Source: a bacterium
Lineage (GTDB): Bacteria > Patescibacteriota > Dojkabacteria > SC72
Direction: 5' to 3'
NCBI GenBank assembly: GCA_022840695.1
Contig: JALHDC010000001.1
Location: 2,516 to 66,515, forward strand
Length of the DNA: 64,000 nucleotides
The notes beneath the pieces were generated by a model. That model had not been told where the DNA came from. It did no database searches and worked only from the letters and a program-made list of their open reading frames with translations. Shown in pieces: positions 14,118 to 50,678 of the stretch. Positions within the stretch are counted from its first letter, which is position 1, and each line of letters starts with the position of its first letter. The position numbers were made by a program, and so were the translations under genes.

Positions 14118-16646
14118 TTAGAAGCCCATTGGAGGAAATCCTTGCGAAGGTTGTTCCACTTTCTCCTCTACCTTATCCAATTGAGATCTTACCCTTATAT
14201 CATCATTTACTACATTTAAATCTCTTCCATACTTTCTTCTTGATATTTCTTTCACTATATTTGCAACTTCTTTGTTTACAGGAAGATCAAATCCAGAATC
14301 TGGGTACTGTGGACCGTATAGAGTGTTAAGTGAGAAAGGAGAAGGATATATGCCATTGTTTAGAAGTTTAACATATGCATGTCCCATTCCTTGGTTAACG
14401 ATATCCATTGAACTGATATACGATTCAAATTGTGTCTCCAAAAATTCCGCATCTTCAGCACTGCATCTGAATATGAATAGCGATCCTACATTTCCAAATA
14501 CTGCATTTCTTATATCTTCTGGTAATTGCCCAATATATTGGTGAGCTAATGTAAGGTTTAATCTATACTTTCTTGCTTCTGAGAGTATAGAATTAAATTC
14601 TTCTGTAGCAAAGTTTTGGAATTCATCGGCATAGAAGAAGAAGTCTTTTCTTTCTTTTTCGTCCATATCTTCTCTACTTAGGGCAGCAGCTAACATTTTT
14701 TGGACCAAGAGTAGACCTAAGAACGACATATTTTCTTCCCCTAATCTACCTTTTGAAAGGTTAACTATTAAAATCTTGCCTGAGTCCATAACTTCTCTGA
14801 AATCGAAAGATGATTGTGATTGTCCAATTATATTTCTAATGGCTAAGTTTGTAGTGAATTTGTCAAACTTAGATATAAAATATGTAAGAGCTTCTGATTT
14901 TGTCTTTTTGTCTGTTTTAGCTACCTGATCTGTCCAATATCTACGAACCAGTTCATCCTGTATCAAGGGTAACCAATGACTCATAACCCAATCTTCATCC
15001 TGGAGTATTCTTACAACCTCTATTAAAGTAGAGTCCTTTTTAGACATAGCGGTAAGCATAGAGTTCCTTACAGCCTGTTGGAATGCTGGTCCTGCATATC
15101 CTTGGTTATGTGGATCAAAGAGACGGATGAGGAGAGCTATGAAGCTGTTCACTATTTGATGCTTATGCTGTTCATTGTAATACTCCATGATATTGATACC
15201 AAATGGTCTTTCAAAATCTCCAGCATCAAAATATATTACATCTTCTGCCCTATCCGCAGGAATTCTCTCTAATATCATTTCTGCAGCTTGTCCGTGTGGA
15301 TCTATGAAGCAGACACCATCTCCATTATGAATATCCTGAAGTATCATTCTAACCATGAGCCATGATTTACCTGTACCTGTTTGTCCAAGTATATATGAAT
15401 GTCTTCTTCTGTCATCCCTCTTAAAACAGATAGCTTTCTTTTTTCCCCTAAAGTAGTTATTCCCTACCCATATTGTATCTTTCGAATTTATATCCGAGCT
15501 TATCTCGTTACTTGCAATCAGTTCTTTTGAGAGTAACCAGTTAACATTGGGAGTAGAGATATCTTTATTTGGGAAGTGATACAGAGCTGCTAGCTCCTCA
15601 AGGTTTAAAACTGTTTTTTCATCTTCGGGTGTTCTTCTGTATATTACATCATATACAAATTTCTTTTCTTCATTTTTGGAAATTTTTCTTTTTTTCAACC
15701 TATTAACACCTGGATTACTGTATTGGTCAAAAGCCCCGATAATATTGTCTAAATGCATTTTTGCAATTCCTTTATCTGGAGCACTAGTGATTATACGAAT
15801 TTCAGCCATAAGACCCGGTTTGGAAACCTTTTTACTAATTGCCTGCAACTTCTCTTGAGAGACATTTATTCTCTTCTTTTCAGGATCTGAATTATTACTT
15901 TCAACTTTCTGCACAAACTTTTCACCATTTTTCTGCCAACTTGAATCTGTAGGAGCAATGACTATCTGTACCAAAGCTCCTTCGTCTTCAGACATTTTAC
16001 TCAAGGTACTAAGTACATTTGCCATTGGGTCTCCAGTGAAATTTTCAGCCACCCTTATTGGACAGTACGAATCTTCATCTAGACCTAATTTTGCATAAGC
16101 AATTTCAGATTTAGGTGCGAATATATTGTACTGTTTGACTATTGCTACATCAGCATCTTGGTATGATCCTAATATTTGTTTTTCAACCAAATCAGCAAGT
16201 TTTCTAGGACAATGAACAAAGAATCTGATTTCTCCAGGAAGTCCTACTATTTCAAAACTAACACTATTGTTTACACTGAATTTCTCTGCAAGACCTTCCC
16301 CTTTTCCTCCTATTCCATAGAGATTGGCAAACATTTTCTCAGCAACTCCCAACTCTACTTCATTATTTCTCGGGACTCTAACTTCCATTAATACCCCATC
16401 CATAGCTTTTTCATCTCTATCCTTCTTTTTTAATTTTTTCTGTATATACAGAAATCCAACGACTAAACCTCCTACCAAGAGAAGAAAAAATATTATCCAG
16501 CCGTATGGAATATTACGAGTTGCTTGATTGTATAAATCACCGTATGTATCTTTAGGATATTCAACATTAGAACCAGTCTCTATTTCTGGTATTTCTTTTG
16601 GTACAGGACCAATTAATTGTGAATATGTAAATTCCCCCGGATTCAT
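14118..16646 (-). CDS. Type IV secretion-type ATPase, VirB4/VirD4 (TraC/TrwB) superfamily, with N-terminal TM anchor
   Basis: 842 aa. TM IPYGWIIFFLLLVGGLVVGFLYI. Walker A ILGQTGTGKS followed by CFIDPHGQ (compare TrwB GATGTGKS...IVDPNGD). Walker B FFFYADEFQNF. Arginine finger/Q motif EARKYRLNLTLAHQ (compare VirB4 RKxN...ATQ). Walker A lies near residue 430 of 842, proportions like VirB4. Confidence 0.65.
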   Translation of the reverse strand: MNPGEFTYSQLIGPVPKEIPEIETGSNVEYPKDTYGDLYNQATRNIPYGWIIFFLLLVGGLVVGFLYIQKKLKKKDRDEKAMDGVLMEVRVPRNNEVELGVAEKMFANLYGIGGKGEGLAEKFSVNNSVSFEIVGLPGEIRFFVHCPRKLADLVEKQILGSYQDADVAIVKQYNIFAPKSEIAYAKLGLDEDSYCPIRVAENFTGDPMANVLSTLSKMSEDEGALVQIVIAPTDSSWQKNGEKFVQKVESNNSDPEKKRINVSQEKLQAISKKVSKPGLMAEIRIITSAPDKGIAKMHLDNIIGAFDQYSNPGVNRLKKRKISKNEEKKFVYDVIYRRTPEDEKTVLNLEELAALYHFPNKDISTPNVNWLLSKELIASNEISSDINSKDTIWVGNNYFRGKKKAICFKRDDRRRHSYILGQTGTGKSWLMVRMILQDIHNGDGVCFIDPHGQAAEMILERIPADRAEDVIYFDAGDFERPFGINIMEYYNEQHKHQIVNSFIALLIRLFDPHNQGYAGPAFQQAVRNSMLTAMSKKDSTLIEVVRILQDEDWVMSHWLPLIQDELVRRYWTDQVAKTDKKTKSEALTYFISKFDKFTTNLAIRNIIGQSQSSFDFREVMDSGKILIVNLSKGRLGEENMSFLGLLLVQKMLAAALSREDMDEKERKDFFFYADEFQNFATEEFNSILSEARKYRLNLTLAHQYIGQLPEDIRNAVFGNVGSLFIFRCSAEDAEFLETQFESYISSMDIVNQGMGHAYVKLLNNGIYPSPFSLNTLYGPQYPDSGFDLPVNKEVANIVKEISRRKYGRDLNVVNDDIRVRSQLDKVEEKVEQPSQGFPPMGF

Positions 16647-16708
16647 AGTAGGACAGTAGAATCTTATGATTAAAGAATATCACACAGGGATATATATATC
16701 AAAGAAAA

Positions 16709-16999
16709 CTAGAGTGGCTCGTTACCATTCATATAGTCAACAAGTGCCTCCAAAGCAACATTGTATTTTGTTTCATCGGTGGCATCTATTACAGGAAATC
16801 CTACACCCAAATCTAGGTATTTAACTTTGTCAGTATTTGGTAAAGCTTTTTCTACAAGCTCTACTCTTTCCGGTGTGATTGGAGATGTGTCGTTTGAAGG
16901 AATTTCTACTACCGGGCTTTCGACAACAGGAGTAACTCCTACTGGCAATATCTCAGGAGTAATATTTGATTGTTCTATACTAGGTGTCATATTATTCAT
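16709..16999 (-). CDS. Hypothetical Pro/Val-rich small protein upstream of the T4SS-type ATPase
   Basis: 96-aa ORF co-oriented with and immediately upstream of the ATPase gene; low-complexity N-terminus; no recognisable motif. Confidence 0.3.
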   Translation of the reverse strand: MNNMTPSIEQSNITPEILPVGVTPVVESPVVEIPSNDTSPITPERVELVEKALPNTDKVKYLDLGVGFPVIDATDETKYNVALEALVDYMNGNEPL

Positions 17000-17027
17000 A
17001 ACCTATAATATTATATCATAAACACCT

Positions 17028-17471
17028 TTATCTTTCATACTTTCTCTTCTCGTACAGCAGTTCTCTTTCCAAATCTCTCTCCTTCTCAACTCTCTTCTTT
17101 TCATAGTTCTTCTTCCCCTTACCAAACCCAACCTCTACCTTAACCTTGCCTCTTGTAGTATACACACTGACAGGAATTAATGTAAGATTTTTCTGTTTTA
17201 ATTTTGCATCTATCTGTACAAGCTCTTTTCCTGTTACTAACAATTTTCTAGATTTTTTAGAATCATAATTCATGCTGCCATCAAATTGATATTTAGGGAT
17301 ATCTCCATTTACAAGCCATAACTCTCCCCCAACTATCTTTACATATGCATCAGACAGATTAATTCTTCCAGATTTTATTGATTTAACCTCAGCTCCTGTT
17401 AATATGATACCGGCTTCAAATGTATCTAAAATTTCGTAATTGAAAAGTGCTTTTTTATTCTTTATTTTCAT
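17028..17471 (-). CDS. smpB: SsrA-binding protein SmpB
   Basis: ALFNYEILDTFEAGIILTGAEVKSIK...GRVKVEVGFGKGKKNYEKKRVEKERDLERE matches the SmpB family throughout, including the basic C-terminal tail. Confidence 0.9.
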   Translation of the reverse strand: MKIKNKKALFNYEILDTFEAGIILTGAEVKSIKSGRINLSDAYVKIVGGELWLVNGDIPKYQFDGSMNYDSKKSRKLLVTGKELVQIDAKLKQKNLTLIPVSVYTTRGKVKVEVGFGKGKKNYEKKRVEKERDLERELLYEKRKYER

Positions 17472-17483
17472 GCGAGTATTATA

Positions 17484-19760
17484 CTACAAACCAAGCTTCC
17501 AGATTACTGAACCATCAAGTATATATATATTCTTTTCAGAGAAATCCACAACAAAATTTCTTACATCAGAAAGAACCGAATCCTTCTCTCCTCTGTAGAC
17601 ATACTGGAAAAGAAGAAGTATTTGGTTAGGATGCCTACTATCTACCCCTGATTCTATTGGTTTTTCAAATCTAAGAAATCTTCTCCCTTCAGAATCAAAC
17701 AGATACAAACCAGAATCTAATGTATCTCCTGTAAAAGCCTTACTCAAGTTTCCATAATTTCCATCAAATCCTAAAACACTCAAAGGAGCTTCGTTATACT
17801 GATTTTCATAGAAACTGTAGTTAAATCTCAAAAGGTGTGGCTCTTCAGAAATTGTTACATAGATACTAAGATCGGCTATTAAATCCGTTGATTTTTCAAA
17901 TCTATCATCAACAATATATGCATAGGTCAGACCATATCTATCACCATATGCCGAGGTTGATTTTAACAAAGCCTTTCTATCTTTAGACATGAAATAGATA
18001 TTGTCACTCGTAGTCCAAGCAACCATCTCTGTAATTTCTGCTGACTTAATATCATTAACACCCAAACCAGATAGCTGAATAAATGGGGAAAACCATCCTT
18101 CCTCGTTAAAGGCTGCTTTCAACATCCCCTGCTTTTCATCATATACATACACTCCGTTAACACCAACATATACCTGTGAAGGAGAAGTAACTAAGCCATC
18201 ATTATCTGGAAGAGTCTTAACACTTTTATCATACAAAGAAACTCTATGCACAGCTTTTCTCCCTTTATCTGCAACAAACAAATATTCATTACCATAACTA
18301 TCTAAGGATATAGCTAAATCAACAATATCGGAGCCCTCTCCAAATGATAATCTACTATCAAGATAGTTAACCATTGTTCCTCCCTCTACAAACCCTACTC
18401 TCTTGTAAAGAGAATCACCCACCTCCAAAACCCTCTCTCTTAAGGTGTGAAATTTCTCAGTATCCTCATCATTCAATTCCCCAGTTATTTCTGACAATTT
18501 CTTCTCTGCTTGGAATAGGTATGTCTCAGCAGAAGAGCTATCCGTTACAAAACTATTTTCACTTTTACTCAGTAATTCTTCAATTTGAACAAACGATTCA
18601 TTAGCTAATTTACTAATTTCTTTCGATTTCTTAGCTTTAACTGTGAAATTAATACCAAGAAGAATCAATGTCAAAATAATTAAAAACATGAAGAGAAGTT
18701 TAAATCTCTTTCCACGAAGATCCCTGACTTTGTAATCATCTATTCGCATTCCTGCTACACCAACTGGTTTTCTTCTTCCAACCCTAACCTCCGAGAATTT
18801 AGAAGCAACTCTTTTGTACCATCTCTTCTTGCCTAAGTTCTCTACAATATTTTCCGAAAGGGAGTTCCAAATATTTTTGAAGGAAGCCACAACTTTGCCC
18901 CAAAATGGTTCCACCTTCCCCCATATTCTATTGAAAATTTTTTTAACCTTAGAGAATTTTGAACTCAAATCTAATTTTTCCTTAAAATCAACAAGAACTC
19001 TTTGCTCCTGAGGTTTCTTAATCTTCTCTACTCTAGCAATAGGTTTTAACAAATTTTGAGCACTTTCTTTAACAGCATTAACTGAATCCTTGATAGTAGT
19101 TCTTTCACTTACAATCTTCTTCTGTCGCTCTTCTTTACTAAAATACAATAAAGCTTTTGTACCTTCTAAAGAACTACCAATAGCATTTAACATCTTTACG
19201 AAATCTTCTTTCTTCTTTAACACTTCCAATCTAGAGACATAGTTATTCAATATATCTGAAGAAGAAACCATTAGTAGGTCCCCTTCCTCAAGAACAACTC
19301 CTGCTGTATTTGCTTTTTTCTCTTCAAGAACTTTACCAATATCTACAAAAGAACCTTTCTTAAATGTAAATATGTCGTTCTCTCCAAAGATTCCAACATA
19401 TACTCCCTCCTCCTTTACCAAAACAATTGTAAAACTGATATCTACCCCAATCTCTTCTAATTCAATATCGTTAGCAATTAGGTCTTTTACCTTTTTGACA
19501 CCAGAGGATATTGAATCTTTCAAAGATTCGTTTGTTGTAGATGCATTGGAATACAGATATCCATCAATAATACTGTCCCAGACAAATTTTGATATTCTTT
19601 CGGATTTTACACTTTTCTCCGAAGATATTTTTAATAATGCATATATATCACCCTTTTTATCTACCTTTTTTTCTGTACTATTAAAAAAATGCCTGAATAC
19701 CTTTATAAAGGAATTACTATCCTTACTATTGGATACATATTGTTGAGCAGTTATTTCCAT
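17484..19760 (-). CDS. Bitopic membrane protein: cytoplasmic degenerate PP2C-like domain, one TM, large extracytoplasmic beta-rich domain
   Basis: 758 aa. Central TM FKLLFMFLIILTLILLGINF. The N-terminal region resembles PP2C/SpoIIE folds (GVYVGIFGENDIFTF...VVLEEGDLLMVSSSDIL) but lacks the metal-binding Asp residues. The C-terminal ~390 aa is Gly/Tyr/Asp-rich and repeat-like (possible propeller). Domain calls are tentative. Confidence 0.55.
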   Translation of the reverse strand: MEITAQQYVSNSKDSNSFIKVFRHFFNSTEKKVDKKGDIYALLKISSEKSVKSERISKFVWDSIIDGYLYSNASTTNESLKDSISSGVKKVKDLIANDIELEEIGVDISFTIVLVKEEGVYVGIFGENDIFTFKKGSFVDIGKVLEEKKANTAGVVLEEGDLLMVSSSDILNNYVSRLEVLKKKEDFVKMLNAIGSSLEGTKALLYFSKEERQKKIVSERTTIKDSVNAVKESAQNLLKPIARVEKIKKPQEQRVLVDFKEKLDLSSKFSKVKKIFNRIWGKVEPFWGKVVASFKNIWNSLSENIVENLGKKRWYKRVASKFSEVRVGRRKPVGVAGMRIDDYKVRDLRGKRFKLLFMFLIILTLILLGINFTVKAKKSKEISKLANESFVQIEELLSKSENSFVTDSSSAETYLFQAEKKLSEITGELNDEDTEKFHTLRERVLEVGDSLYKRVGFVEGGTMVNYLDSRLSFGEGSDIVDLAISLDSYGNEYLFVADKGRKAVHRVSLYDKSVKTLPDNDGLVTSPSQVYVGVNGVYVYDEKQGMLKAAFNEEGWFSPFIQLSGLGVNDIKSAEITEMVAWTTSDNIYFMSKDRKALLKSTSAYGDRYGLTYAYIVDDRFEKSTDLIADLSIYVTISEEPHLLRFNYSFYENQYNEAPLSVLGFDGNYGNLSKAFTGDTLDSGLYLFDSEGRRFLRFEKPIESGVDSRHPNQILLLFQYVYRGEKDSVLSDVRNFVVDFSEKNIYILDGSVIWKLGL

Positions 19761-19762
19761 AA

Positions 19763-20026
19763 TTATGTAAGAATTACAAACAACAAAGAAAGTAAAGTTC
19801 CTACTAGTACTATTATGGTGTACAAGAGTATGACTATGTTTACTATTTTGTTTTGTGGGGTCTTGAAGGTGTCTGCCAAAATTCTAACTCTCAAAAAGAG
19901 TAACAGAGAAAAGAATATATTCCCTACCAGTATGAGAATTATTGGTAATTTAAGAAGCGAAAGGAAGTTGAATGAAAGAATGGTATTGCTTCCTCCTAAG
20001 TTGTTTAAAAAATCATTTATATCCAC
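19763..20026 (-). CDS. Small hydrophobic membrane protein (87 aa)
   Basis: The ORF exactly fills the gap between two minus-strand genes; two predicted TM helices; no homology recognised. Confidence 0.35.
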   Translation of the reverse strand: MDINDFLNNLGGSNTILSFNFLSLLKLPIILILVGNIFFSLLLFLRVRILADTFKTPQNKIVNIVILLYTIIVLVGTLLSLLFVILT

Positions 20027-20646
20027 TATATTTCTCCTTTCTGCTTAGATTCCAAAAGATCGTACAAAATATCCTGTACTTCCCTCGGTCTCGGTATATT
20101 ATCAAATTCAATTTCTGCAGTAGCTCCTGCAGTCTGGATGTATACCGTACCGATATCAAATATACTACCAAGAGCACCTAACTGTTTATGTGATACATCC
20201 TCTATCTTGTCCAATCTTGCTTCTGCCATAGAGTGAGATACTATGCTTGTAAAATCTATATCTATAACCCTTCTGTCCGTTATGATATTCACATTGTAAA
20301 ACCATCTTGCAAATGCATATACAACTATAGAAAAAGAAATAGTTAGACATGAAAGAAAAAGTGCCAAGAAGAAAGATGTACTTTCAGCAAGACCAGATAT
20401 AACTATCTGTATTAATACTGGAATAAGCAATACAGTAAGGGCTATACCTGCATATGGGATATATATAATCCAGTGTGATCGAACAATTAAAACTACATTT
20501 TCATCTTTCTCTTTTCCATAGAATGTTAAATCCTTAGGAAATGACATAAAAGAACCGTTGTTATTCTGTTGCAAATTATCCAAGAAGGATTTTCTCAATT
20601 TCCTGAATTTCTTGGGTACTAGATTGGGATTTTCTCTTTTAGCCAT
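20026..20646 (-). CDS. Membrane protein with bacterial PH (bPH_2/YdbS-like) domain
   Basis: Two TM helices (WIIYIPYAGIALTVLLIPVLIQIVI; FFLALFLSCLTISFSIVVYAF) followed by a soluble domain typical of DUF304/bPH_2. Confidence 0.55.
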   Translation of the reverse strand: MAKRENPNLVPKKFRKLRKSFLDNLQQNNNGSFMSFPKDLTFYGKEKDENVVLIVRSHWIIYIPYAGIALTVLLIPVLIQIVISGLAESTSFFLALFLSCLTISFSIVVYAFARWFYNVNIITDRRVIDIDFTSIVSHSMAEARLDKIEDVSHKQLGALGSIFDIGTVYIQTAGATAEIEFDNIPRPREVQDILYDLLESKQKGEI

Positions 20647-20820: not shown

Positions 20821-20843
20821 GGGGACAGAGGAGGGTCTGACCC
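20821..20843. repeat. 23-nt GC-rich motif GGGGACAGAGGAGGGTCTGACCC (copy 1), palindromic core GGGTCnGACCC
   Basis: Identical except for the central nucleotide to 57652..57674. Both copies sit in GC-rich intergenic DNA and are each preceded 75-145 nt upstream by a degenerate AGGGTCnG...GGTC element. Copy 1 abuts the stop codon of the SpoIID-domain gene. Confidence 0.6.
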
Positions 20844-22714
20844 TACTTCTTCTCTACGTTGAAATACCAATAGTGTGATTGTTGTTGTATACGCATGTGG
20901 CCGGGAGCCATTTGATTGTATATATCCTTAAATTCATTACCGGGAATGCTAATTGTCCCCCGCTCCGTGCCATAAAAATGAACATATGTGGTTTTCCCTT
21001 CGGACAGATCTGTCTTAACAAAAGATATTGATTTTACAGGGTTATACAAAAAACTCTCCAATTCGGAAGATGAATAAGGAGATTTCGTTATGTTGCCATA
21101 ATCTACCCTATATGGACACTTCCCAAAATCACTTGGTAGTAATCTTGATAAATCGGGATTTCCTTTTACTCCTTTACCATATTTTATTAAGTATGCATTT
21201 AAAATATCTATCATTTCTTGTGGAGATAGCCAGGGAGAATGACCGCATGTTATCCCATCAGGCTTATCACCATAGCGATACCAAGATTTATAAAACCATG
21301 TCACTCCAGAAACTTTTTCCCAAGCATCGTAAAACCAGTTACTTCCACCTCCACTCTGTGTATCCCACCCTCCAATACTATCAATCCACCCACCATGCAC
21401 AGCAGCATACTGTGTGATTGCAAGATCTGCCCCACGGAACAAAACCTGACTTCGTGTACTATCAACTGCTTGTTTCCAAGTCCCTGTTTTAACACCTGCC
21501 ACATACTGATGACATGTATCACCTCTTATCGCGGAGGCTCCGTATCCTGTAACTCGCAAAGCAAATGTTCTTGCTGCAATAGCCTGTGCTTTCAATGCTT
21601 CTATATGGAAGTATTCTGGCATTTCCCCAAGACGATATAGATATTCCGTTTCGAAATCGTATGTTGCATAGGTGGGATTTACACAACCATCCTCCACAGG
21701 ATACCCACTTCTGGGACATCTTGAATTTGCACCACAATAGACAACTGTTATAGATCCCATGGTTCCACTACCAAAAGTAGGATTAGAATAGTAAAAATTC
21801 AAAATATCTCTATAACTTTGACCCGCATCAGCTCTAGCTCTAGCACCCCACTGACTCATACCGTTTCTATGTGTATATGCCCCAATAGAAAATACTCCGA
21901 AATAACCTGCTGGCGCCTGAGCTATAGAAGTACCATCCCCAGAGGTTGTATCTCCGCCACTCGATATAAACCCTGAACTTCTTGCAGCTATCAATGCAGC
22001 TTGAAGCTGTGATACCTTTTTTGTCAGATCTGTTATCTCAGAACTCAACCCACTCTTACTAGCTACCTGCTTACTCAACTCTGCCTGTAACCTAACCTTC
22101 TCTGAAGCTAACAACTCATGAGCATCATCCAAACCCTTTCTCTGACTATTCAAATCCTCCATCTGATTATCCAAATCAGCCTTACTCTCTGCTAACGAAC
22201 TAAACTCCCCCCCTATCTTCTCTACCTCTCCCCTTAACATAGATATAGTACTCTGCTTTATGAAAATACTCTCCACCAAACTCTTCCACCCCTCTTTACT
22301 TAAAAAGAAATTAGATACCTTAGACCTACTCTGTATATACAAATCACCAGAAACCTCATCAATTAATACTTTCATTTTCTCCAACTGTCCCTGCTTTTCA
22401 TTAATAGCTAAACTCTTCTCCTCTATCTCCTTCTCTGTTCTTTCAATATTTTCTTCTAACTCTGTAATCTCTTTGTTTATCAAAACAATCTTTTGGGATA
22501 TTGAATAATTACTATTACTTATCTCTTTTATTCTGCTTTCAACACTCTTTAAAACACCCTCCTTCTCTTTTAACTCTTTCTCTGTTTCAGCTATTTTATT
22601 CTCTAAATCCACTATTTCATTAGAATATATTGGGAAGTTGAAAAGAGTGAATGAATACAAAACAAAAAGAAATACGGCAAATATATTTGTGATTATTCGG
22701 GGCACTTTAGACAT
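20843..22714 (-). CDS. SpoIID/LytB-domain protein with N-terminal TM and long coiled coil
   Basis: C-terminal SpoIID signature ALKAQAIAARTFALRVTGYGASAIRGDTCHQYVAG. The N-terminal ~300 aa is a K/E-rich coiled coil after a TM anchor. The 3' third of the gene is markedly GC-richer than the surroundings. Confidence 0.75.
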   Translation of the reverse strand: MSKVPRIITNIFAVFLFVLYSFTLFNFPIYSNEIVDLENKIAETEKELKEKEGVLKSVESRIKEISNSNYSISQKIVLINKEITELEENIERTEKEIEEKSLAINEKQGQLEKMKVLIDEVSGDLYIQSRSKVSNFFLSKEGWKSLVESIFIKQSTISMLRGEVEKIGGEFSSLAESKADLDNQMEDLNSQRKGLDDAHELLASEKVRLQAELSKQVASKSGLSSEITDLTKKVSQLQAALIAARSSGFISSGGDTTSGDGTSIAQAPAGYFGVFSIGAYTHRNGMSQWGARARADAGQSYRDILNFYYSNPTFGSGTMGSITVVYCGANSRCPRSGYPVEDGCVNPTYATYDFETEYLYRLGEMPEYFHIEALKAQAIAARTFALRVTGYGASAIRGDTCHQYVAGVKTGTWKQAVDSTRSQVLFRGADLAITQYAAVHGGWIDSIGGWDTQSGGGSNWFYDAWEKVSGVTWFYKSWYRYGDKPDGITCGHSPWLSPQEMIDILNAYLIKYGKGVKGNPDLSRLLPSDFGKCPYRVDYGNITKSPYSSSELESFLYNPVKSISFVKTDLSEGKTTYVHFYGTERGTISIPGNEFKDIYNQMAPGHMRIQQQSHYWYFNVEKK

Positions 22715-22729: not shown

Positions 22730-23122
22730 TTAGCTGATAATGTTTTTTACAAATTCTATTATATATGGAAGAAACACTATTAATCCTGTTGTTACAGAAA
22801 CAAAAGCACTCACTAAAACAGCTCCAGCACTAACATCTTTGGCATATTTAATATTTACCTTATACTCCAAAGAAACAGTATCACACAATGCCTCTATTGC
22901 ACTATTAACTGTTTCAGATATAAAGACCATGGATATTACTAAGCTTAATGCTATCCAATCTGTATGAGAAATTTGGAAAAAGAACCCAGCAAAGACAACC
23001 AAGAGTGCAAAGATGAGATCTATTCTAAAATTTCTTTCGTTCTTAAATATCAGCTTAATACCATTCCTAGCATGCCCTTGGCTTTTAAAAAAATTTTCTG
23101 CCTGATATTTATGATTTTTCAT
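22730..23122 (-). CDS. dgkA: Diacylglycerol/undecaprenol kinase (DgkA family)
   Basis: Three TM helices and the conserved SETVNSAIEALCD motif of prokaryotic DAGK. Confidence 0.8.
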   Translation of the reverse strand: MKNHKYQAENFFKSQGHARNGIKLIFKNERNFRIDLIFALLVVFAGFFFQISHTDWIALSLVISMVFISETVNSAIEALCDTVSLEYKVNIKYAKDVSAGAVLVSAFVSVTTGLIVFLPYIIEFVKNIIS

Positions 23123-23442
23123 TATTGGGCAATGAAGTCTAAAACTGCATTAAGTACTGTAAATATAACCATTACAAAGATAAAGCCAATAACAGCCCAT
23201 GTTAATGTCCCTTGAGCTTGCTTCACCCTAGCAGGATCCCCTGCAGATATCATCCACATATATCCTCCCTGTATTATGAATATTACACAGATCAAACCTG
23301 CCAATGGAAAAAGGTAACTTAAAAGTTTATCTACCAATGTAGCCAATGTCCCATCTGTTAACCTAGGTGGTTCCTGGGCAAACACCGGAGAAACTAGAAG
23401 AAGTCCGGAGAAAAAATATATATATTTAAATATACTTTTCAT
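23122..23442 (-). CDS. VirB2/TrbC-like small membrane pilin-type protein, paralog 1
   Basis: Signal peptide (…LLLVSPVFAQ), then two hydrophobic helices separated by the conserved loop GGYMWMISAGDPARVKQAQGTL. Confidence 0.55.
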   Translation of the reverse strand: MKSIFKYIYFFSGLLLVSPVFAQEPPRLTDGTLATLVDKLLSYLFPLAGLICVIFIIQGGYMWMISAGDPARVKQAQGTLTWAVIGFIFVMVIFTVLNAVLDFIAQ

Positions 23443-23717
23443 TATTTAGTAGTTAAAACTTCATTTATTACAAATTCTATAATTGTTGGGGATATAAATA
23501 CAAGTATTAAACCTAAAAGAGAGAATGCCATTGATCTTGTAGCATCTTTTATCTTATCCTCATCACCAAAAGAAAGTATGAACTTAAAGCCAGAAATGAC
23601 TAATGATATAACCACTATTACTACGGAGAATGAGATGGCAAAGTTTATTATAAAGAATACAAATTCTGTTAAATTCTCATACCCCGTGTTGTTAAGAATA
23701 CTTAAATCCACCAACAT
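23442..23717 (-). CDS. VirB2/TrbC-like small membrane protein, paralog 2
   Basis: Two hydrophobic helices with loop SFGDEDKIKDATRSM; start overlaps the stop of paralog 1 (translational coupling). Confidence 0.5.
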   Translation of the reverse strand: MLVDLSILNNTGYENLTEFVFFIINFAISFSVVIVVISLVISGFKFILSFGDEDKIKDATRSMAFSLLGLILVFISPTIIEFVINEVLTTK

Positions 23718-23741
23718 ACGGGTATTAATTAAAAATATCTA

Positions 23742-24086
23742 TTACTTAAGAACGTTTGTTAATACAAACTGTACTAAGATTACGGAGATAAAACAGATAA
23801 CCAAACCAACGATTGCATATGTCAATGATTTTGTTGCTTTTTCTATCTTTGATTCATCTCCAGCTGCTGTGATATATGTATATCCACTAGCTATCAATAT
23901 TGCAACACATACTAAAGCTGCTAAACCAATTACTAAGTTCAAAACATCTTTAACCCATGGTAAAAAATCTTTACTTAATGGACCTTCTGGTAAATACTCT
24001 GTACCTGTTTGTGCTAAGACTGCAGAAGCTAAGTAGAGATTAGAAGCAACTCCTGAAACTACTGCTAATATCTTGGTCATTTTCAT
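23742..24086 (-). CDS. VirB2/TrbC-like small membrane protein, paralog 3
   Basis: Signal peptide (…ASAVLAQ) plus two helices and loop ASGYTYITAAGDESKIEKATKSL. Confidence 0.55.
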   Translation of the reverse strand: MKMTKILAVVSGVASNLYLASAVLAQTGTEYLPEGPLSKDFLPWVKDVLNLVIGLAALVCVAILIASGYTYITAAGDESKIEKATKSLTYAIVGLVICFISVILVQFVLTNVLK

Positions 24087-24161
24087 ATATTCTGTTTATT
24101 AAATATTATATTAATTGTGATAATTATATATAAAGGATTAGTTTTATGCAATACTAATTCT

Positions 24162-24458
24162 TTATAACCCCAATATCTTTCCAATAACAAAATCTATTAT
24201 TGTTCTAGCTAAAAATACAATAACCAAACCTATGATTGCAGCTGTTATACCCTTTTGACCTTTTTCGATCTTTTCAGGATCTCCTGCAGCAGTTATGAAC
24301 ATATACCCTGAAGCTACTAAGATAATTACAGCAACTAAAGCTGAAAATCCTACAAAGAAATCAATTGCAGTACCCACTTTTGAATTCAAAACGGAATCAA
24401 GAGTAGGATCTCCCCAATTTATTAATTTATCTCCAATAAACTGAGTTATATTTGTCAT
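24162..24458 (-). CDS. VirB2/TrbC-like small membrane protein, paralog 4
   Basis: Loop ASGYMFITAAGDPEKIEKGQKGI between two hydrophobic helices. Confidence 0.55.
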   Translation of the reverse strand: MTNITQFIGDKLINWGDPTLDSVLNSKVGTAIDFFVGFSALVAVIILVASGYMFITAAGDPEKIEKGQKGITAAIIGLVIVFLARTIIDFVIGKILGL

Positions 24459-24474
24459 ATTCGTATATTAATAA

Positions 24475-24825
24475 TTAATTATAAATATCCAAACCCAATG
24501 TATTACTGATTATCAATAGTATTGCAACAGAAAGTAATACTACTAAAAAACCAATAATTGCATTAGTTAAAATTTCCTTCCCTTCTTTTAATTTGTCCGG
24601 ATTTCCTTGACTAGACATAAGCATATATCCAGCATATACCACTAAAACAACCACACATATCACAGCCAAAGGAACAGCGATATCTACGATGGCATCTATA
24701 AGTTGATTCTCATCGGCAATCCCACCACTCTCCAATTTACCTAAACTTTCACTTAGTTTTGAACCCAAATCCTGAGCATATGCTTTTTGCACTATTAAAT
24801 CATGAATTTTACTAATAATTTCCAT
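24475..24825 (-). CDS. VirB2/TrbC-like small membrane protein, paralog 5
   Basis: Loop AGYMLMSSQGNPDKLKEGKEIL between two hydrophobic helices; most divergent copy. Confidence 0.5.
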   Translation of the reverse strand: MEIISKIHDLIVQKAYAQDLGSKLSESLGKLESGGIADENQLIDAIVDIAVPLAVICVVVLVVYAGYMLMSSQGNPDKLKEGKEILTNAIIGFLVVLLSVAILLIISNTLGLDIYN

Positions 24826-33888: not shown

Positions 33889-33919
33889 ATATTGATAAAG
33901 AACATTGGTATTATACCAT

Positions 33920-34216: not shown

Positions 34217-34508
34217 TTATCAAGGATGAGAAATAATCATCTATTTCTTTTGAGTTTCTTAAAGCAATCGTTTTCCCCTCCTTGTACTCCTTTATTCCAT
34301 CTTCTATATCCTTTGCCAATTGGGGATCATCTATATACTCCTCAGAACCAAGATGAAAACCTTCAACATCCTTGGTAAGAACATATCTCACATACTCAGG
34401 AAAGGAATATCCATATATTCTCGCCTTAGATTCAGCAATATCCATCAATCGACTTGGAAATGTTATCTGTCTTGTAACACTTTTTTTATAGTCTATACTC
34501 TTAGTCAT
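34203..34508 (-). CDS. Putative cognate antitoxin (101 aa)
   Basis: Immediately upstream of and overlapping the toxin; acidic C-terminus; N-terminal region could form an RHH/DNA-binding fold (inference). Confidence 0.45.
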   Translation of the reverse strand: MTKSIDYKKSVTRQITFPSRLMDIAESKARIYGYSFPEYVRYVLTKDVEGFHLGSEEYIDDPQLAKDIEDGIKEYKEGKTIALRNSKEIDDYFSSLINGEE

Positions 34509-39378: not shown

Positions 39379-40492
39379 GCATGACTAGATGGACAAAACT
39401 ATCATCCCCGTCTATCTTAAATACTCCTGGTTTAACTGCTTCTGAACACTCAAAAAGTATATTTTCGGAATCTAAGTGATTAAGTATGTCAGAAAGAAGT
39501 TTTGCACTAAAAGCTATCTTTAGATCCTCTCCCTCTACTTTACAACCAAAGTTACTCTCATTTTTACCTAAATCAGCTTGAGTAGCGGAAAGAGATATTT
39601 GATCTGATTTAGAAGATATATCTAATATCATCTTATTTCCTAAAACAGATCTAGCAATAATATTGACTATCTTTAAAGAATTTAGAAATACTTCTCTCTC
39701 TATACTACATTTAGTTTTAAATCCTGTAGGTATAATCTGTTTATATTCAGGAAATTCACCATCTATTAACCTAGATATTAAATCTATATCTCCAACTCTA
39801 AACATAACTTGATTCTTATCCTCTATTAAATAGATTGATAATAGTTCATCAGAATCATTACTTGTCTCAGAGATTATATATGAAAGCTCTATTAAAGCTC
39901 TTACAGGAATTAAGAAACTCCTATTCTTAGATGTTTTTCCAACCTTAATAACCTGTCTAGATAATCTCAAACCATCAGTTGCTATTAAAGCCACCTGATC
40001 ATCCTCTATTTCAAATTTGACACCTGTTAATACCGGTTTAATATCATCAGTAGCAGCAGCAAAAGCAACTCTATTAATGGCCATAACTAAATCTGCTTTA
40101 TTAATCTGAATAAACGGATCTTCCTTCTTTTCTACAGATGGAATTGTAGGAAAATCATCAGAAGGCATAGTATTAAAACTTGCAGTATTGTTAGATGTTG
40201 ATATATTGAAATTTTGTTTTTCAACTTCTACCTGAACAACCTCTTCTGGAATTGAATTTACAAAATCTGTTAATTGTTTAGCAGGTATAGTTACTTTTCC
40301 CTCATCTGTAATATCAGCACCTATCCAGGTATTGATACTTAGTTCTAAATCAGTTGCCTTGATAATCAATTTATTCTTTTCACTTTCGAATAGTACATTG
40401 TTTAATATTGGAAGACCAGGTTTATTACTAACTACCCTACTTACAATATTCAAATATTTTGAGAATGTATCTTGATTACAAGAAAACTTCAT
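39365..40492 (-). CDS. dnaN: DNA polymerase III beta sliding clamp
   Basis: MKFSCNQDTFSKYLNIVSRVVSNKPGLPILNNVLFE is typical of the DnaN N-terminus; 375 aa; located downstream of dnaA. Confidence 0.9.
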   Translation of the reverse strand: MKFSCNQDTFSKYLNIVSRVVSNKPGLPILNNVLFESEKNKLIIKATDLELSINTWIGADITDEGKVTIPAKQLTDFVNSIPEEVVQVEVEKQNFNISTSNNTASFNTMPSDDFPTIPSVEKKEDPFIQINKADLVMAINRVAFAAATDDIKPVLTGVKFEIEDDQVALIATDGLRLSRQVIKVGKTSKNRSFLIPVRALIELSYIISETSNDSDELLSIYLIEDKNQVMFRVGDIDLISRLIDGEFPEYKQIIPTGFKTKCSIEREVFLNSLKIVNIIARSVLGNKMILDISSKSDQISLSATQADLGKNESNFGCKVEGEDLKIAFSAKLLSDILNHLDSENILFECSEAVKPGVFKIDGDDSFVHLVMPMML

Positions 40493-40935: not shown

Positions 40936-42405
40936 CTAACTTCTTAATATCTTAATACACTTATCGATCTTTTCATCTGTTCTACGGTCATTCCCTCTTA
41001 AGGCTTCTATTTTTTCGTATGCATGTATAACTGTTGTATGGTCCTTTCTATTTACTTCTTTTGCTACCCTTTCAAGTGGCATATCCAACTCCTTTCGAAG
41101 TATATACATTACAATCTGTCTGCACTTTGCTACATATGCTGTTCTTCTATTTCCCTTTATTTCATTTGGTTTTACATCAAACACCTCTGATACTGTTTTT
41201 ATGACCTTGGTAGGTGTAATTCTTTTTCTCTTTGTATCAATATCTATTTGCAGTATTTTTGCTACATCCTCTTCTGTTGGATTAATACCTAACTTGAAAA
41301 GAGATACAACTTTAGTTAGTGCTCCCTCTAGCTCCCTTATATTGCTTTCTACATTTTTGGCTATCAATTCTATATATTCATCAGGTATTGAGTAGTTCCT
41401 ATCTGTTAAACACTGTCTTAGTATGGCTATTCTTGTTTCGTAATCTGGTGCTTGGATATCCGCAACCATCCCTCCTTCAAATCTAGATCTTAGTCTATCA
41501 GTGATATTCTTTATTTCCTTAGGAGGTCTATCTGATGCTAGTATTATCTGTTTATTAGCTTGGTATAGGGTATTAAAGGTATGAAATAGCTCCTCTTGTG
41601 TTCTAGGGTATGTTTCCACGAACTGGACATCGTCTATGATTAAAAGGTCCACTGCCCTGTATTTATTCCTAAAATCCTCATTTCTTTTTGTCCTAATAGC
41701 CTCAACCATTTCATTTAGGAATTGTTCTATTGATATGTAAACAACCTTTTTATTTGAATCTTTTCTCAATATCTCATTTCCAATAGCTTGCATAAGGTGT
41801 GTTTTTCCTACACCTGTCTCTCCGTAGTAGAAAACAGGATTATATGCATTTCCAAGATCTTCTAAAACTGCCTGTGCTACAGCCTCTGCTAATCTATTAT
41901 TGGAACCAACTATGAAGTTAGAAAAAAGATACTTAGGGTTTAGGTGTGACTCTTCTAATGACTTTTTATACAAGTGTTCCTCTTTCTCAGCTGAGGAAAA
42001 AAGATCTAGGACCTCTTCTTCCTTTTCCGAACCTGGATTATGATACTCATATCTTGGTTTACTACTTTCTTTAGATTTTTCCCTTAAGTTTATTTCCAAT
42101 TCAAAATTCCTATCACAAGTTTTTTGAAGAGCATTTTTAATTGCATACTGATAATCTTTTAAAATCTTCTCTCTTTTATATGCAGCATCACAAGACATCT
42201 GCACTACTCCATTATTTATTGACTCTATATATACATTCCCAAAGAGACCACCAAATTCTCTCACCCCGATTGCTTGTTTCAAATACTCTTGAGCTACTTT
42301 CCATACTTCATCTGGATCCCATTCATTATCGTTATTACTCACAACAGTAGTGTTACTTGGTATCTTTTCAAAATGATTTTTAAAGTCTGCTTTGTTCATT
42401 AGCAT
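40936..42405 (-). CDS. dnaA: Chromosomal replication initiator DnaA
   Basis: Walker A GETGVGKTHLMQAIGNEI, Walker B LLIIDDVQFV, sensor/arginine regions, C-terminal DNA-binding helix VAMYILRKELDMPLERVAKEV...HTTVIHAYEKI. Confidence 0.95.
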   Translation of the reverse strand: MLMNKADFKNHFEKIPSNTTVVSNNDNEWDPDEVWKVAQEYLKQAIGVREFGGLFGNVYIESINNGVVQMSCDAAYKREKILKDYQYAIKNALQKTCDRNFELEINLREKSKESSKPRYEYHNPGSEKEEEVLDLFSSAEKEEHLYKKSLEESHLNPKYLFSNFIVGSNNRLAEAVAQAVLEDLGNAYNPVFYYGETGVGKTHLMQAIGNEILRKDSNKKVVYISIEQFLNEMVEAIRTKRNEDFRNKYRAVDLLIIDDVQFVETYPRTQEELFHTFNTLYQANKQIILASDRPPKEIKNITDRLRSRFEGGMVADIQAPDYETRIAILRQCLTDRNYSIPDEYIELIAKNVESNIRELEGALTKVVSLFKLGINPTEEDVAKILQIDIDTKRKRITPTKVIKTVSEVFDVKPNEIKGNRRTAYVAKCRQIVMYILRKELDMPLERVAKEVNRKDHTTVIHAYEKIEALRGNDRRTDEKIDKCIKILRS

Positions 42406-47254: not shown

Positions 47255-47271
47255 TCTCAAAATGATTCTTT

Positions 47272-48119: not shown

Positions 48120-48183
48120 CTATATTTAGGCTATTCTATCAAATGTTGTTGATATTAACTAGATTAGAAGATAATATTAATTA

Positions 48184-48906
48184 ATGAAAGATTTTCCTAA
48201 AAAAATCTGGTTAATAGTCCTCTTCTTTTTATTACTATCCCTTTCGATCAATCTACTAAAAGAAAATCATGAAAAAGAGGAAGTACTCGGAATAAATAAT
48301 AAAAATATTGAGGAGGTAGTAATAGAAGAAAGCCTTAATATTGCAAAAGCACAGCTAGATATATCTAATAAAAGTGTAGAAAAGAATGAAGTCTATGTCC
48401 CCTACTATTGGAAGAATGGTTTAAATGTTGATTCTAAAGATTATTTATTAGGATATATTCCTTCTATTAATAGTTTTTATGAGTATTATGTATCTAAAAA
48501 TAAGATACTATTAGGAGTTAATCCTCGAAAATATGATTATGATATGGAAGAGGTAATGAATGTCGTAGATAATCGAGAGATGATATTTTCAAATGGTATT
48601 TTGAATGAAAGTCAGTATTTTCAGTGGGAAGAAAATTTATGTGATTCTTTCAGGTTGGATTCTGTAGGGAAGAAAATTTTTACCTGTTTAAACTGGTTGA
48701 ATTGGAGTGGAATTGAATTATCTAAGAAAAGTTTTGTATTAACAGATTGTAGTATAGAAGATACTGATGGATATTGCTTATTTGAGGAGTATAGTGAGAT
48801 ATACTATGATAGTAAGAAGTTAGGAGAAAAAAGGTGTTTCCAGAATGAGAATGAAGAATATCTTTGTGATTATGATGAGTATGTTAAACAAATAGAATAT
48901 AATTAA
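48184..48906 (+). CDS. Secreted/membrane-anchored Cys-containing protein, unknown function (240 aa)
   Basis: N-terminal hydrophobic segment IWLIVLFFLLLSLSINLL; eight Cys in the C-terminal half; first gene of a three-gene plus-strand block between two minus-strand tRNAs. Confidence 0.5.
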   Translation: MKDFPKKIWLIVLFFLLLSLSINLLKENHEKEEVLGINNKNIEEVVIEESLNIAKAQLDISNKSVEKNEVYVPYYWKNGLNVDSKDYLLGYIPSINSFYEYYVSKNKILLGVNPRKYDYDMEEVMNVVDNREMIFSNGILNESQYFQWEENLCDSFRLDSVGKKIFTCLNWLNWSGIELSKKSFVLTDCSIEDTDGYCLFEEYSEIYYDSKKLGEKRCFQNENEEYLCDYDEYVKQIEYN

Positions 48907-48923
48907 ATTTATTTACTGCCTTA

Positions 48924-50678
48924 ATGAGATTTATTAAATCATTTATATTTTCACTCTTTCTCATAATACTTCTCCCCTCCACCATTCTTGCCAGAGAGAT
49001 TATTAGAGAGGAAGACGGAGAAAGATGCATAGATTTGGAAGCTGCTTATGCAGATATTAATGATTCGAGTAAGGCATTGACAGGGCAGGATAATAGTGTT
49101 GATGCGGTTAAGAGAGTAAATACCGTAGCTTCTCTGACTAATATTATGTCAATCTTAATAGGAGATAGTATTTACTGTGTGAACGATGAAGCTTCTGTAT
49201 CGAATATCGGGGGATCAGATGACAATGGGCTTATTGGACAGTTATTAAATGCAAATTCACAAATGATTGCTTCGTTCCCGACAGTCAATGTCGGGCAACA
49301 CCTTGCCGAGGAGTTTATCCCTGGTTATCGCGACAATGTAGGAATTTTTGCATTGGGGATAGGAGATTATGAAGAAGATGATCTTGATAAAGAGGAAAGG
49401 AAGGGACAAAAAAGAATAAAGCAAATACAAGAGAAGGTGACAGATCCCTTACAAGAGCAATTTTTAGAAGATGCTAACCAAATTATTGAAGAGAGTGAAA
49501 ATTTGGAAAGTGTAGATACTTCAAACCCTGTTACAAATTCTGGTTATAACTATTTAAAGGATAATTTACATCTTGATGAGATTTGGGGTACTTTTAGAAA
49601 TATTGCCTACCTGGGATATGTAATTATTATTATTATTGTTGGTTTCATGATCATGTTCCGGAAGAATCTTCCTGGGCAAATCGTTGTATCGTTGGGAAAT
49701 ACAATCCCCCAGATTATATTCGGGCTCATTTTAGTAACATTTAGTTTCGCCATTGTTGGAATAGTTATGGATGTAGGTAAAACATCAATGAAAGTGATAG
49801 GTTCTATGTTTGTATCTGTGTATAAAGAGGAAGATCCTACTGTAACGGAGGAAGATTTGGTAGGAGTTGAAGATATTGGTTCCTTAACCGATGAAGCCTT
49901 AATAACTGCTAAACAGGACGGTTTTATAGTCTCTAATCTAAGAAAGCTGCCATTGATAGGCGAGAATTTAGCTGATTCATATTCTGGAACTGCCGGAACA
50001 GTTAAGAAAATTGTTGGACAATCAGTTGGTATATTTACATTAACTGCATTAGCAGATGTGATGACTAAGAATATTCAAAATATGCATTTTGATGTAAATA
50101 TTTTGGGGGTTGATTTGGTTTTGGATATCGCTGCGGAGACAATAAAGAGCATTATAACCCTTCCTCTGAATGCGATAAAAGTTGGTTTAACAACCTTTCT
50201 TATTAGAAACATATTACTTCTCCTAGTTTGTCTATATGCTTCTTTTAAATTGTTCATTACGATGTTAATGACATATCTTAAATTATTCATCAATGTCATA
50301 TTTGGCCCTATTCAGATAATGTTAGGTTCTCTTCCTGGAAATTTCTCTTCAACAACAAAATGGTTTAAATCCGTTATTGCAAATGTATTCACATTTGTAG
50401 GAATATACTTAGTTATAAATGTATTTGCATTCATATCTTCTGCAGTTGATCCTGCTCAATTCAATTTTTTTGGAAATAAAGGAGTATTTTGGCCAGATTG
50501 GATAGTCTCTTTAGAGGGAGTTATTTTAATAGCAGGCTATCTATTTGCAGCTAATATGCCAACAATAATTAATGGTGCACTAAAGATAGAGCAAAGTAAG
50601 GAGATGTCTATGGTTGGCCAATCAGTACAGAAGGCTGCAGGAAAAATACCTTTTATAGGTGGAATGTTTAATGGTTAG
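48924..50678 (+). CDS. Large polytopic membrane protein with signal peptide and ~200-aa extracytoplasmic domain (possible VirB6/TrbL-like)
   Basis: 584 aa. Cleavable-looking signal (FIFSLFLIILLPSTILA), then an acidic ectodomain, then at least 6 TM helices (IAYLGYVIIIIIVGFMIMF; IIFGLILVTFSFAIVGIVM; LLLLVCLYASFKLFITMLMTYL; VFTFVGIYLVINVFAFI; VILIAGYLFAANMP). Architecture, not sequence identity, suggests VirB6/TrbL. Confidence 0.55.
   Translation: MRFIKSFIFSLFLIILLPSTILAREIIREEDGERCIDLEAAYADINDSSKALTGQDNSVDAVKRVNTVASLTNIMSILIGDSIYCVNDEASVSNIGGSDDNGLIGQLLNANSQMIASFPTVNVGQHLAEEFIPGYRDNVGIFALGIGDYEEDDLDKEERKGQKRIKQIQEKVTDPLQEQFLEDANQIIEESENLESVDTSNPVTNSGYNYLKDNLHLDEIWGTFRNIAYLGYVIIIIIVGFMIMFRKNLPGQIVVSLGNTIPQIIFGLILVTFSFAIVGIVMDVGKTSMKVIGSMFVSVYKEEDPTVTEEDLVGVEDIGSLTDEALITAKQDGFIVSNLRKLPLIGENLADSYSGTAGTVKKIVGQSVGIFTLTALADVMTKNIQNMHFDVNILGVDLVLDIAAETIKSIITLPLNAIKVGLTTFLIRNILLLLVCLYASFKLFITMLMTYLKLFINVIFGPIQIMLGSLPGNFSSTTKWFKSVIANVFTFVGIYLVINVFAFISSAVDPAQFNFFGNKGVFWPDWIVSLEGVILIAGYLFAANMPTIINGALKIEQSKEMSMVGQSVQKAAGKIPFIGGMFNG

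Follow-up and report, generated by a model that had tools for sequence, protein, structure and literature searches.

We examined a 64 kb window (that is, the whole stretch of DNA analysed here) from the chromosome of a member of Candidatus Dojkabacteria, within the Patescibacteria or candidate phyla radiation (CPR), for which an original prediction, made from the sequence alone, had proposed a dispersed set of parts resembling a type IV secretion system (T4SS). Close homologues of the encoded proteins carry the names Candidatus Dojkabacteria or candidate division WS6 (CPR/Patescibacteria); gene absences described below hold for the window. The three proposed parts, placed at 14.1–16.6, 23.1–24.8 and 48.9–50.7 kb, all coincide with open reading frames (ORFs): a membrane-anchored P-loop ATPase of 842 residues (14118–16646, minus strand), an array of five divergent VirB2-like pilin genes (23122–24825, minus strand) and a VirB6-like polytopic membrane protein of 584 residues (48924–50678, plus strand). 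They form three loci across 36 kb, with 24 kb between the VirB6-like gene and the pilins. The presence of dnaA (40936–42405) and dnaN (39365–40492), a cumulative GC-skew minimum at 40–42 kb and a switch in strand bias (genes mostly on the minus strand to the left of this region and mostly on the plus strand to its right) indicate that the window spans the replication origin. The distance to dnaA is 16 kb for the pilin array and 6.5 kb for the VirB6-like gene. The G+C content is 28–39% along the whole window, with no compositional anomaly seen.

The five pilin genes (pil1, 23122–23442; pil2, 23442–23717; pil3, 23742–24086; pil4, 24162–24458; pil5, 24475–24825; all on the minus strand) were identified by Pfam and NCBIfam profiles and by topology. 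All five products pass the cut-off of 26.6 bits for the Pfam T4SS_pilin family PF18895 (50.3, 27.3, 45.1, 43.0 and 37.7 bits, respectively), with pil2 clearing it by only 0.7 bits, and none of the five reaches the cut-off for the TrbC family PF04956 (best score 27.7 versus 27.9). Each also matches the NCBIfam model NF045849 (Mbov_0395 pilin-like), pil3 scoring above its cut-off (45.8 versus 40) and one other at it (39.9). Every pilin contains two strong hydrophobic helices joined by a conserved loop, G-[DN]-x-x-K, in which the glycine is invariant and the second position is aspartate in four proteins and asparagine in pil5; pil1 and pil3 carry an additional N-terminal hydrophobic leader. A hidden Markov model built from the five sequences found no sixth copy in the window.

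Comparison with two other Dojkabacteria loci used for synteny (L086 and L087, whose ATPases are 79% and 71% identical to that of the window) revealed that the pilins are one-to-one positional orthologues, the best score in the identity matrix always falling at the same position in the other locus. Identity to these orthologues is 43–67%, and identity among the five paralogues is 18–42%. The one-to-one orthology, combined with such low identity among paralogues, indicates that the array is old and that each of its members has been separately kept. Judged by these sequence comparisons, the five pilins are ancient one-to-one orthologues rather than recent duplicates, which argues for distinct structural roles (such as major and minor pilins) over antigenic variation.

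The ATPase was identified with Pfam type IV coupling protein (T4CP) profiles, passing the thresholds for T4SS-DNA_transf (37 bits, cut-off 20.1), DUF87 (30.6, cut-off 23.2) and TrwB_AAD_bind (24.6, cut-off 20.5). It comprises a transmembrane (TM) helix at residues 50–68, an N-terminal domain of approximately 330 residues and a T4CP/VirD4-type motor with Walker A at residues 421–428 and Walker B at 674–675. The Walker A sequence (GQTGTGKS) and the Walker B residues D674 and E675 are invariant in 33 homologues, and the N-terminal domain corresponds to PF26449 (DUF8128), a precomputed domain on the identical database protein. The intervening DUF8128 domain sets this layout apart from that of a classic coupling protein (a short TM anchor leading straight into the motor), and no relaxase was found in the window. 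No NCBIfam equivalog cut-off is reached, the best matches being the VirD4-like CD1115 model (46.7 bits versus 250) and SXT_TraD (44.5 versus 366). No VirB4 match was obtained by sequence either: Pfam CagE_TrbE_VirB gave none, and NCBIfam VirB4_plasma scored 16.4 bits versus a cut-off of 590, in the P-loop only. The motor is coupling-protein-like, as far as its sequence can tell.

The predicted structure of the ATPase resembled a different relative. Its AlphaFold2 model was computed from a shallow alignment (71–96% identity), with a confidence score (pLDDT) of approximately 75–85 in the N-terminal domain and 45–60 in the motor. A fold search with this low-confidence model returned TrwK, the VirB4 protein of R388 (7o42, 7o43 and 8rtd), as the best and full-length match, followed at much lower scores by EccE3 (8.2), a VirB4 C-terminal domain (7.7), Cag-beta/VirD4 (7.6), HerA (7.3), TcpA (6.5) and TrwB (5.7). 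With Foldseek, the top 14 matches were all TrwK chains, aligned over approximately 850–930 columns (one shorter chain, 492) at E values of 3e-9 to 3e-6, and no coupling protein was found at E≤0.001; TM-scores were low (0.23). Profile–profile comparison (hhalign) of the ATPase alignment with PrgJ (E 0.11) and PcfC (E 0.018) produced weak matches in the Walker B region only, from an alignment (Neff 1.6) too shallow to discriminate. We suggest, with low confidence owing to the quality of the model, that the protein may carry a VirB4-like N-terminal domain (DUF8128) on a T4CP-like motor. The same layout is seen in SEML1_0293 of Southlakia epibionticum (921 residues, with TrwB_AAD_bind at 402–719 and DUF87 at 405–618; supplementary tables of Wang et al. 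2023, PMC10633639), which places the ATPase in a class of T4CP homologues found throughout the CPR.

The VirB6-like gene is the second of three in a module close to the origin, preceded by a gene for a 240-residue protein, anchored at its N-terminus or secreted, in which six cysteines are invariant (48184–48906), and followed by a gene for a 646-residue protein with C-terminal TM helices (50690–52630), all on the plus strand. The VirB6-like protein contains a signal peptide, an outer domain of approximately 200 residues, at least five TM helices and two invariant motifs, GFMIMFR and TFSF. Searches of Pfam, NCBIfam and PDB sequences, with the single sequence or a 34-sequence profile, returned no match. 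Its modelled fold matches DotA (9ngy) and TrwI/VirB6 (7o3v), the lower matches being generic helical bundles. The proposal of a VirB6/TrbL-like protein therefore stood as regards its ORF, TM helices and fold and found no counterpart in sequence matches; the number of helices and the VirB6-type fold point to a divergent VirB6-like subunit.

A profile search of a library of 1.84 billion proteins found 4,091 cluster representatives of this family at E≤0.001, and no bridge to an annotated VirB6 was seen among the best 150 of them. A scan of species-representative genomes, with neighbourhoods analysed by phmmer, located homologues at 79 loci. In 11 loci of Microgenomatia type (Levyibacteriota, Roizmanbacteria and relatives), between one and seven T4SS_pilin genes occur within 10 kb of the VirB6-like homologue. 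Dojkabacteria possess two paralogous VirB6-like modules: the dnaA-proximal trio described above, and a second in which the VirB6-like paralogue is located approximately 5 kb upstream of a 670-residue UvrD helicase.

In 15 loci, an orthologue of the 240-residue protein is encoded immediately upstream of the VirB6-like gene. Family and PDB searches with this protein gave no match and no VirB8 sequence signal; its position and size resemble those of VirB8-type subunits, for which it is a candidate. The 646-residue protein, assigned by BLASTP homology, is collinear with longer proteins of the paralogous modules (7e-10 to the homologue at L047 and 3e-6 to that at L003), and the L047 homologue ends in a Peptidase_M23 domain (37.5 bits). 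A search for further homologues recovered 29 proteins, none with a Pfam domain, the one with a named source being from Dojkabacteria; orthologues of the 646-residue protein were found only in Dojkabacteria.

Two side observations arose from the wider set of loci. In three Microgenomatia-type loci (L046, L061 and L080; for example L046, 16172–18283), the first two genes of the pilin array encode proteins of 306–472 residues with a T4SS_pilin domain at the C-terminus only, which may be pilins with large N-terminal extensions; they adjoin a 435-residue protein with an OmpR-type DNA-binding domain. Several contigs carrying CPR-type VirB6-like and pilin genes (L049, L053, L061, L065, L075, L079, L080 and L083) are labelled ‘uncultured Gammaproteobacteria’ or ‘Pseudomonadales’, probably through binning or taxonomy error.

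The ATPase and the pilins belong to a single co-directional run of genes. From 27910 down to 14118 every gene is on the minus strand, and all gaps but one are 0–75 nt, in the order UvrD/PD-(D/E)XK helicase-nuclease, five pilins, dgkA, a SpoIID-domain protein, a 196-nt gap, a bPH_2 protein, a DUF5657 protein, a 758-residue protein, smpB, a 96-residue protein and the ATPase. Within this run the ATPase gene is 6.5 kb from the pilin array. The same gene order is kept in L086 and L087. In each of the three Dojkabacteria compared, the ATPase gene is found no further than ten genes from the pilin array. Calling the system dispersed was correct insofar as its genes are chromosomal and fall into three loci, and overstated insofar as two of these share one run and the third is a tight three-gene module. 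The described interleaving with the core genes smpB, dgkA, nfo and dnaA was upheld, dgkA and the AP-endonuclease gene nfo by Pfam directly (as was the Xer-type recombinase), and smpB and dnaA through orthologues bearing Pfam SmpB and Bac_DnaA.

Conservation differs markedly among these parts. Between the window and the other Dojkabacteria loci, the ATPase is 71–79% identical, compared with 68–71% for FtsH, 63–67% for EF-P and 56% for PolA; the VirB6-like protein is 34–46% identical, and DnaA of the same loci 60–74%. Comparison with FtsH and PolA places the ATPase, by its sequence, under housekeeping-level constraint, with the envelope parts evolving fast. The preservation of gene order, including the one-to-one pilins, in two other Dojkabacteria (the outcome of the comparison across the lineage that had been suggested as a check) argues that these are vertically inherited core genes and not mobile-element remnants. 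Consistent with the original prediction, relaxase, transposase and plasmid-replication families had no representative among approximately 48 window ORFs scanned (ORFs outside this set were assessed only by visual inspection), and the sole integrase is an Xer-type tyrosine recombinase by Pfam, which adjoins the ATPase and is positionally conserved at 76–77% identity.

We consider it probable, with room for doubt, that the window is an origin-proximal Dojkabacteria region carrying three vertically inherited loci of the published Patescibacteria-type T4SS. Derived from a conjugation apparatus and of monoderm type, that system no longer has a relaxase and has acquired VirB2-like pilins; the window combines a pilin array, proximity to dnaA, a CPR host and no relaxase that could be found. 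A survey of 3,035 genomes (Quinonero-Coronel et al. 2025, PMC12102498) described a VirB4 clade that is specific to Patescibacteria and falls within MPF-FATA, 441 arrays of 2–11 pilins with a mean identity of 25%, few relaxases and dnaA close by; Dojkabacteria genomes are VirB4-positive in its Table S1, and the preprint names Dojkabacteria among the T4SS lineages. In Southlakia, the T4SS cluster (six pilins included) lies next to dnaA, is without recognisable coupling protein or relaxase and is essential for epibiotic growth as measured by transposon sequencing (Wang et al. 2023, PMC10633639). A 2025 review regards the patescibacterial systems as an established subgroup of T4SSs and raises, as speculation, the idea that the pilus serves as a conduit to the host (PMC12857230), and suggestive tubular structures have been described in another cultivated member of the phylum (bioRxiv 10.64898/2026.06.21.733656). 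The idea of chromosomal T4SS-type genes among core genes in a reduced CPR genome is thus borne out by the conserved order and the lack of a detected relaxase; the observation is not new, the system having already been published for genomes that include Dojkabacteria.

In such a machine, the pilins would insert into the membrane as two-helix hairpins and, with the VirB6-like protein as their platform, would build a short pilus or conduit, with energy for assembly supplied by a VirB4 ATPase (together with VirB3/PrgI) encoded outside the window. Remodelling of the cell wall might be assisted by the SpoIID protein in the window, and in relatives by the M23-peptidase versions of the 646-residue protein. 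The pilus or conduit would then contact a host bacterium, for attachment or for the exchange of macromolecules; a host-interface role, which the original prediction had offered as a candidate, is also the reading favoured in the literature (PMC10633639, PMC12857230). The T4CP-like ATPase may act as a membrane-anchored hexameric translocase that feeds substrate to the machine, and appears to evolve and to be inherited independently of it.

Several observations weigh against this reading. Neither VirB4-family nor VirB3/PrgI-family profiles match anything in the 64 kb, and TrsD and VirB8 are likewise unrecognised there; lacking the first two, the parts list in the window is incomplete and would not suffice by itself for a working T4SS. 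The presence of VirB4 in this genome is assumed from other Dojkabacteria. The VirB6 assignment was made by fold, from a model with a mean pLDDT of 69.5, and neither the 584-residue protein nor ten distant relatives match Pfam TrbL. Membership of T4SS families was established for the ATPase and the five pilins, at Pfam thresholds, and not by the NCBIfam equivalog, VirB4 or TrbL profiles. At none of the 79 VirB6-like loci is a VirB4-like or T4CP-like P-loop ATPase found within 10 kb, which makes the physical case for a joint function of the parts an indirect one. Lastly, SEML1_0293 of Southlakia is non-essential at all time points and is encoded far from the T4SS cluster (PMC10633639). Since that protein of the same architecture is dispensable and unlinked to an essential secretion cluster, the place of the window ATPase in the machine is uncertain.

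The last two of these points also favour a view in which two unrelated systems are present, the pilins and the VirB6-like module making up a T4SS-like pilus and the ATPase having been exapted for DNA uptake, chromosome handling or some other translocation, with its proximity to the pilins a matter of general synteny. Exaptation was raised by the survey authors, who found only 148 of 5,713 CPR T4CP homologues (in 2,918 genomes) near virB4 (PMC12102498). The flanking core genes are indeed equally syntenic, and the ATPase is conserved far above the pilins and the VirB6-like protein. However, its family matches are to conjugation coupling proteins only, a T4SS ATPase is the nearest match to its predicted fold, it keeps its place within ten genes of the pilins in all three Dojkabacteria, and an alternative function has no direct support; we judge this explanation unlikely, though worth keeping in mind. 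If instead the DUF8128-T4CP ATPase, as a VirB4/VirD4 hybrid, itself assembled the Dojkabacteria pilus and replaced or merged VirB4 and VirD4, the machine would be a T4SS with one ATPase, and the near-universal ‘T4CP-like’ family of the CPR would consist of such hybrids. The sequence profiles do indicate a T4CP, no other ATPase of T4SS type is encoded in the 64 kb around oriC, the gene is syntenic with the pilin array, and VirB4 adjoins no VirB6-like homologue examined. Yet Dojkabacteria genomes are listed as VirB4-positive, Southlakia encodes both SEML1_0293 and a separate 612-residue VirB4, SEML1_0008 (PMC10633639), and the structural resemblance comes from a model that is weak in the motor, with a shallow alignment and the low TM-scores given above. 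We regard such a single-motor arrangement as improbable.

Two further possibilities were rejected, each as very improbable. T4SS genes are usually derived from mobile elements, and the incomplete parts list and the tyrosine recombinase beside the ATPase might suggest decayed, scattered and non-functional remnants of an integrated conjugative element (ICE) or plasmid. All of the genes are intact, however, with the ATPase catalytic motifs invariant and conservation equal to that of housekeeping genes; the order is kept across Dojkabacteria, recombinase included, and no relaxase, transposase, element-specific integrase, GC anomaly or break in synteny was found in the window. It might also be argued that generic two-helix small proteins and a generic helical protein of 584 residues, with no role in secretion, have been over-annotated, given that short hydrophobic proteins and helical bundles readily give weak matches, that pil2 passes its threshold so narrowly and that the VirB6 assignment lacks support from sequence. 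Such over-annotation is hard to reconcile with five adjacent genes that all pass a curated threshold and match a second, independent model (pil3 above its cut-off), with the pilin and VirB6-like families being neighbours in other lineages, or with the essential, homologous pilin array of Southlakia.

The genes between the pilins and the ATPase were examined individually. dgkA (22730–23122; Pfam DAGK_prokar, 112.9 bits) and the gene for the 623-residue SpoIID-domain protein (20843–22714; Pfam SpoIID, 44.5 bits), which has an N-terminal anchor and a coiled coil, form a unit that abuts the last pilin gene, with a 1-nt overlap and a 15-nt gap at the two junctions. This pilin-dgkA-SpoIID arrangement is kept in L086 and L087, and by analogy with VirB1 the SpoIID protein is a possible partner in cell-wall remodelling. 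A terminator-like hairpin at 20809–20778 (weak evidence) lies just past the SpoIID gene, inside the 196-nt gap, and a promoter scan gave as many matches as expected from shuffled sequence. Beyond this gap are genes for the bPH_2 membrane protein (20026–20646) and a DUF5657 protein with two TM helices (19763–20026), both recognised by Pfam, a 758-residue single-TM protein (17484–19760), smpB (17028–17471) and the 96-residue protein (16709–16999). All are on the minus strand, and the gaps within this block (16709–20646) are 0–62 nt.

The bPH_2, DUF5657 and 758-residue trio (17484–20646, minus strand) keeps its place between the ATPase and the pilin unit in each of the three Dojkabacteria, and the 758-residue protein is fast-evolving (37–41% identity across Dojkabacteria). 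In size and topology the DUF5657 protein is as would be expected for a partner of VirB3 type, an assignment that has no support. Directly after the ATPase gene lies a tRNA-Ile gene with anticodon UAU (14009–14083, minus strand); decoding of AUA through tRNA-Ile(UAU) is uncommon in bacteria. Two tRNA-Met (CAU) genes are nearby (11587–11662 and 12333–12407, minus strand), one of which could be an initiator or a lysidine-type tRNA-Ile.

Elsewhere in the window, which encodes tRNAs and one tmRNA, the tmRNA gene (102 bits) adjoins a YafQ/RelE-like toxin and putative antitoxin pair (region 33469–34508, minus strand). An ATP-dependent DNA ligase, not of the NAD-dependent LigA type, is encoded at 4689–6524 (minus strand), its L087 orthologue carrying Pfam DNA_ligase_A_N/M/C. 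At 1–4669 (minus strand), two tandem paralogues of 513 and 405 residues with near-identical N-termini (MNRSAQNK..LSILFVLCILGLGYWYFF) and no Pfam match lie downstream, on the minus strand, of a cysteine-rich ORF that spans at least 636 residues and continues beyond the left edge of the window; the three may form a surface-protein cluster. A 94-residue membrane-anchored protein (32330–32614, plus strand) has a cysteine-rich domain matching Pfam Pacifastin_I (37.5 bits versus a threshold of 27.9), an arthropod-type serine-protease inhibitor family that is odd in a CPR bacterium. Two paralogous secreted or anchored proteins (30110–31009, minus strand, and 32628–33458, plus strand) share the motif LP(E/S)GWSI(V/T)EY(V/M)DGDGTDMLMD, belong to no Pfam family and flank DUF2177 and DUF1295 membrane proteins. 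Genes resembling PilM/FtsA, PilN and PilO, with weak Pfam matches, are located at 54510–55742 (minus strand) and 61547–62718 (plus strand); these encode components of the type IV pilus, an envelope machine that, besides the T4SS, is known to be essential in Saccharibacteria.

Few machines have been demonstrated to be essential to the epibiotic life of a cultivated Patescibacterium, and the T4SS is one of them. Against that background the window describes how the system is laid out in Dojkabacteria (a pilin-dgkA-SpoIID unit, a T4CP-like ATPase unit and an oriC-proximal VirB6-like module) and does not reveal a new kind of system. The analysis adds a few modest points: a divergent VirB6-like family, identified by its fold and linked to pilin arrays, M23-bearing relatives of the gene downstream of it, the ancient orthology of the pilins and a possible VirB4-like N-terminal domain in the ATPase. 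VirB6 homologues have been described as ‘scarce or absent’ in Microgenomatia and Gracilibacteria (PMC12102498), and a VirB6/DotA-like family that Pfam does not see, near pilin arrays of Microgenomatia type, could fill part of that gap.

Among known systems, the closest counterpart is the Southlakia cluster SEML1_0006–0019. Both have a divergent PF18895 pilin array (six members there, five in the window), a VirB6-like polytopic protein recognisable by structure only, a large membrane protein that carries a peptidase domain and is encoded nearby, adjacency to dnaA and dnaN and no relaxase, as well as a separate T4CP-like ATPase with an N-terminal extension of approximately 400 residues (SEML1_0293). 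In Southlakia, however, VirB4, PrgI/VirB3, the VirB6-like protein, hydrolases and pilins are gathered in one cluster, whereas the parts in the window are spread over three loci and include neither VirB4 nor VirB3; conversely, the T4CP-like gene is approximately 255 kb from the Southlakia cluster and only 6.5 kb from the pilins here. A membrane-anchored wall hydrolase near a VirB6-like gene is found both in Southlakia (SEML1_0007) and in pCF10, an MPF-FATA system (PrgH/PrgI/PrgJ/PrgK/PcfC) that shares the monoderm architecture and differs in having a relaxase and adhesins and lacking pilins. The link to MPF-FATA is also seen in the VirD4-like CD1115 model, the best NCBIfam match of the ATPase motor. 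Searches by phmmer with PrgH, PrgI, PrgJ (VirB4), PrgK, PrgL and PcfC (T4CP) gave no match at E≤10 among the window ORFs and 87 loci, the queries being too distant to be informative.

More distant comparisons concern individual components. The 584-residue protein shares approximately 10% identity with TrwI/VirB6 of R388 and with DotA of the Legionella Dot/Icm system; unlike them, it has an extra N-terminal outer domain and a central hydrophilic insert (in the style of an ‘extended VirB6’) and comes from a monoderm host. The ATPase is 5–11% identical to TrwK across the matched chains, from which it differs by its own N-terminal TM helix and by sequence profiles that favour T4CP families. In a plasmid collection, its best near-full-length relatives are haloarchaeal gene pairs (approximately 25% identity over 78–86% of the query, with DUF8128 and the motor both included); there the two domains are encoded by separate genes, and the hosts are archaea; one such record, H2, is typed as non-mobilizable. 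For the pilins, the match of all five to the Mbov_0395 model extends the comparison to a Mycoplasma ICE, a mobile conjugative element with relaxase-type machinery, with three of the five window pilins falling below the cut-off of that model.

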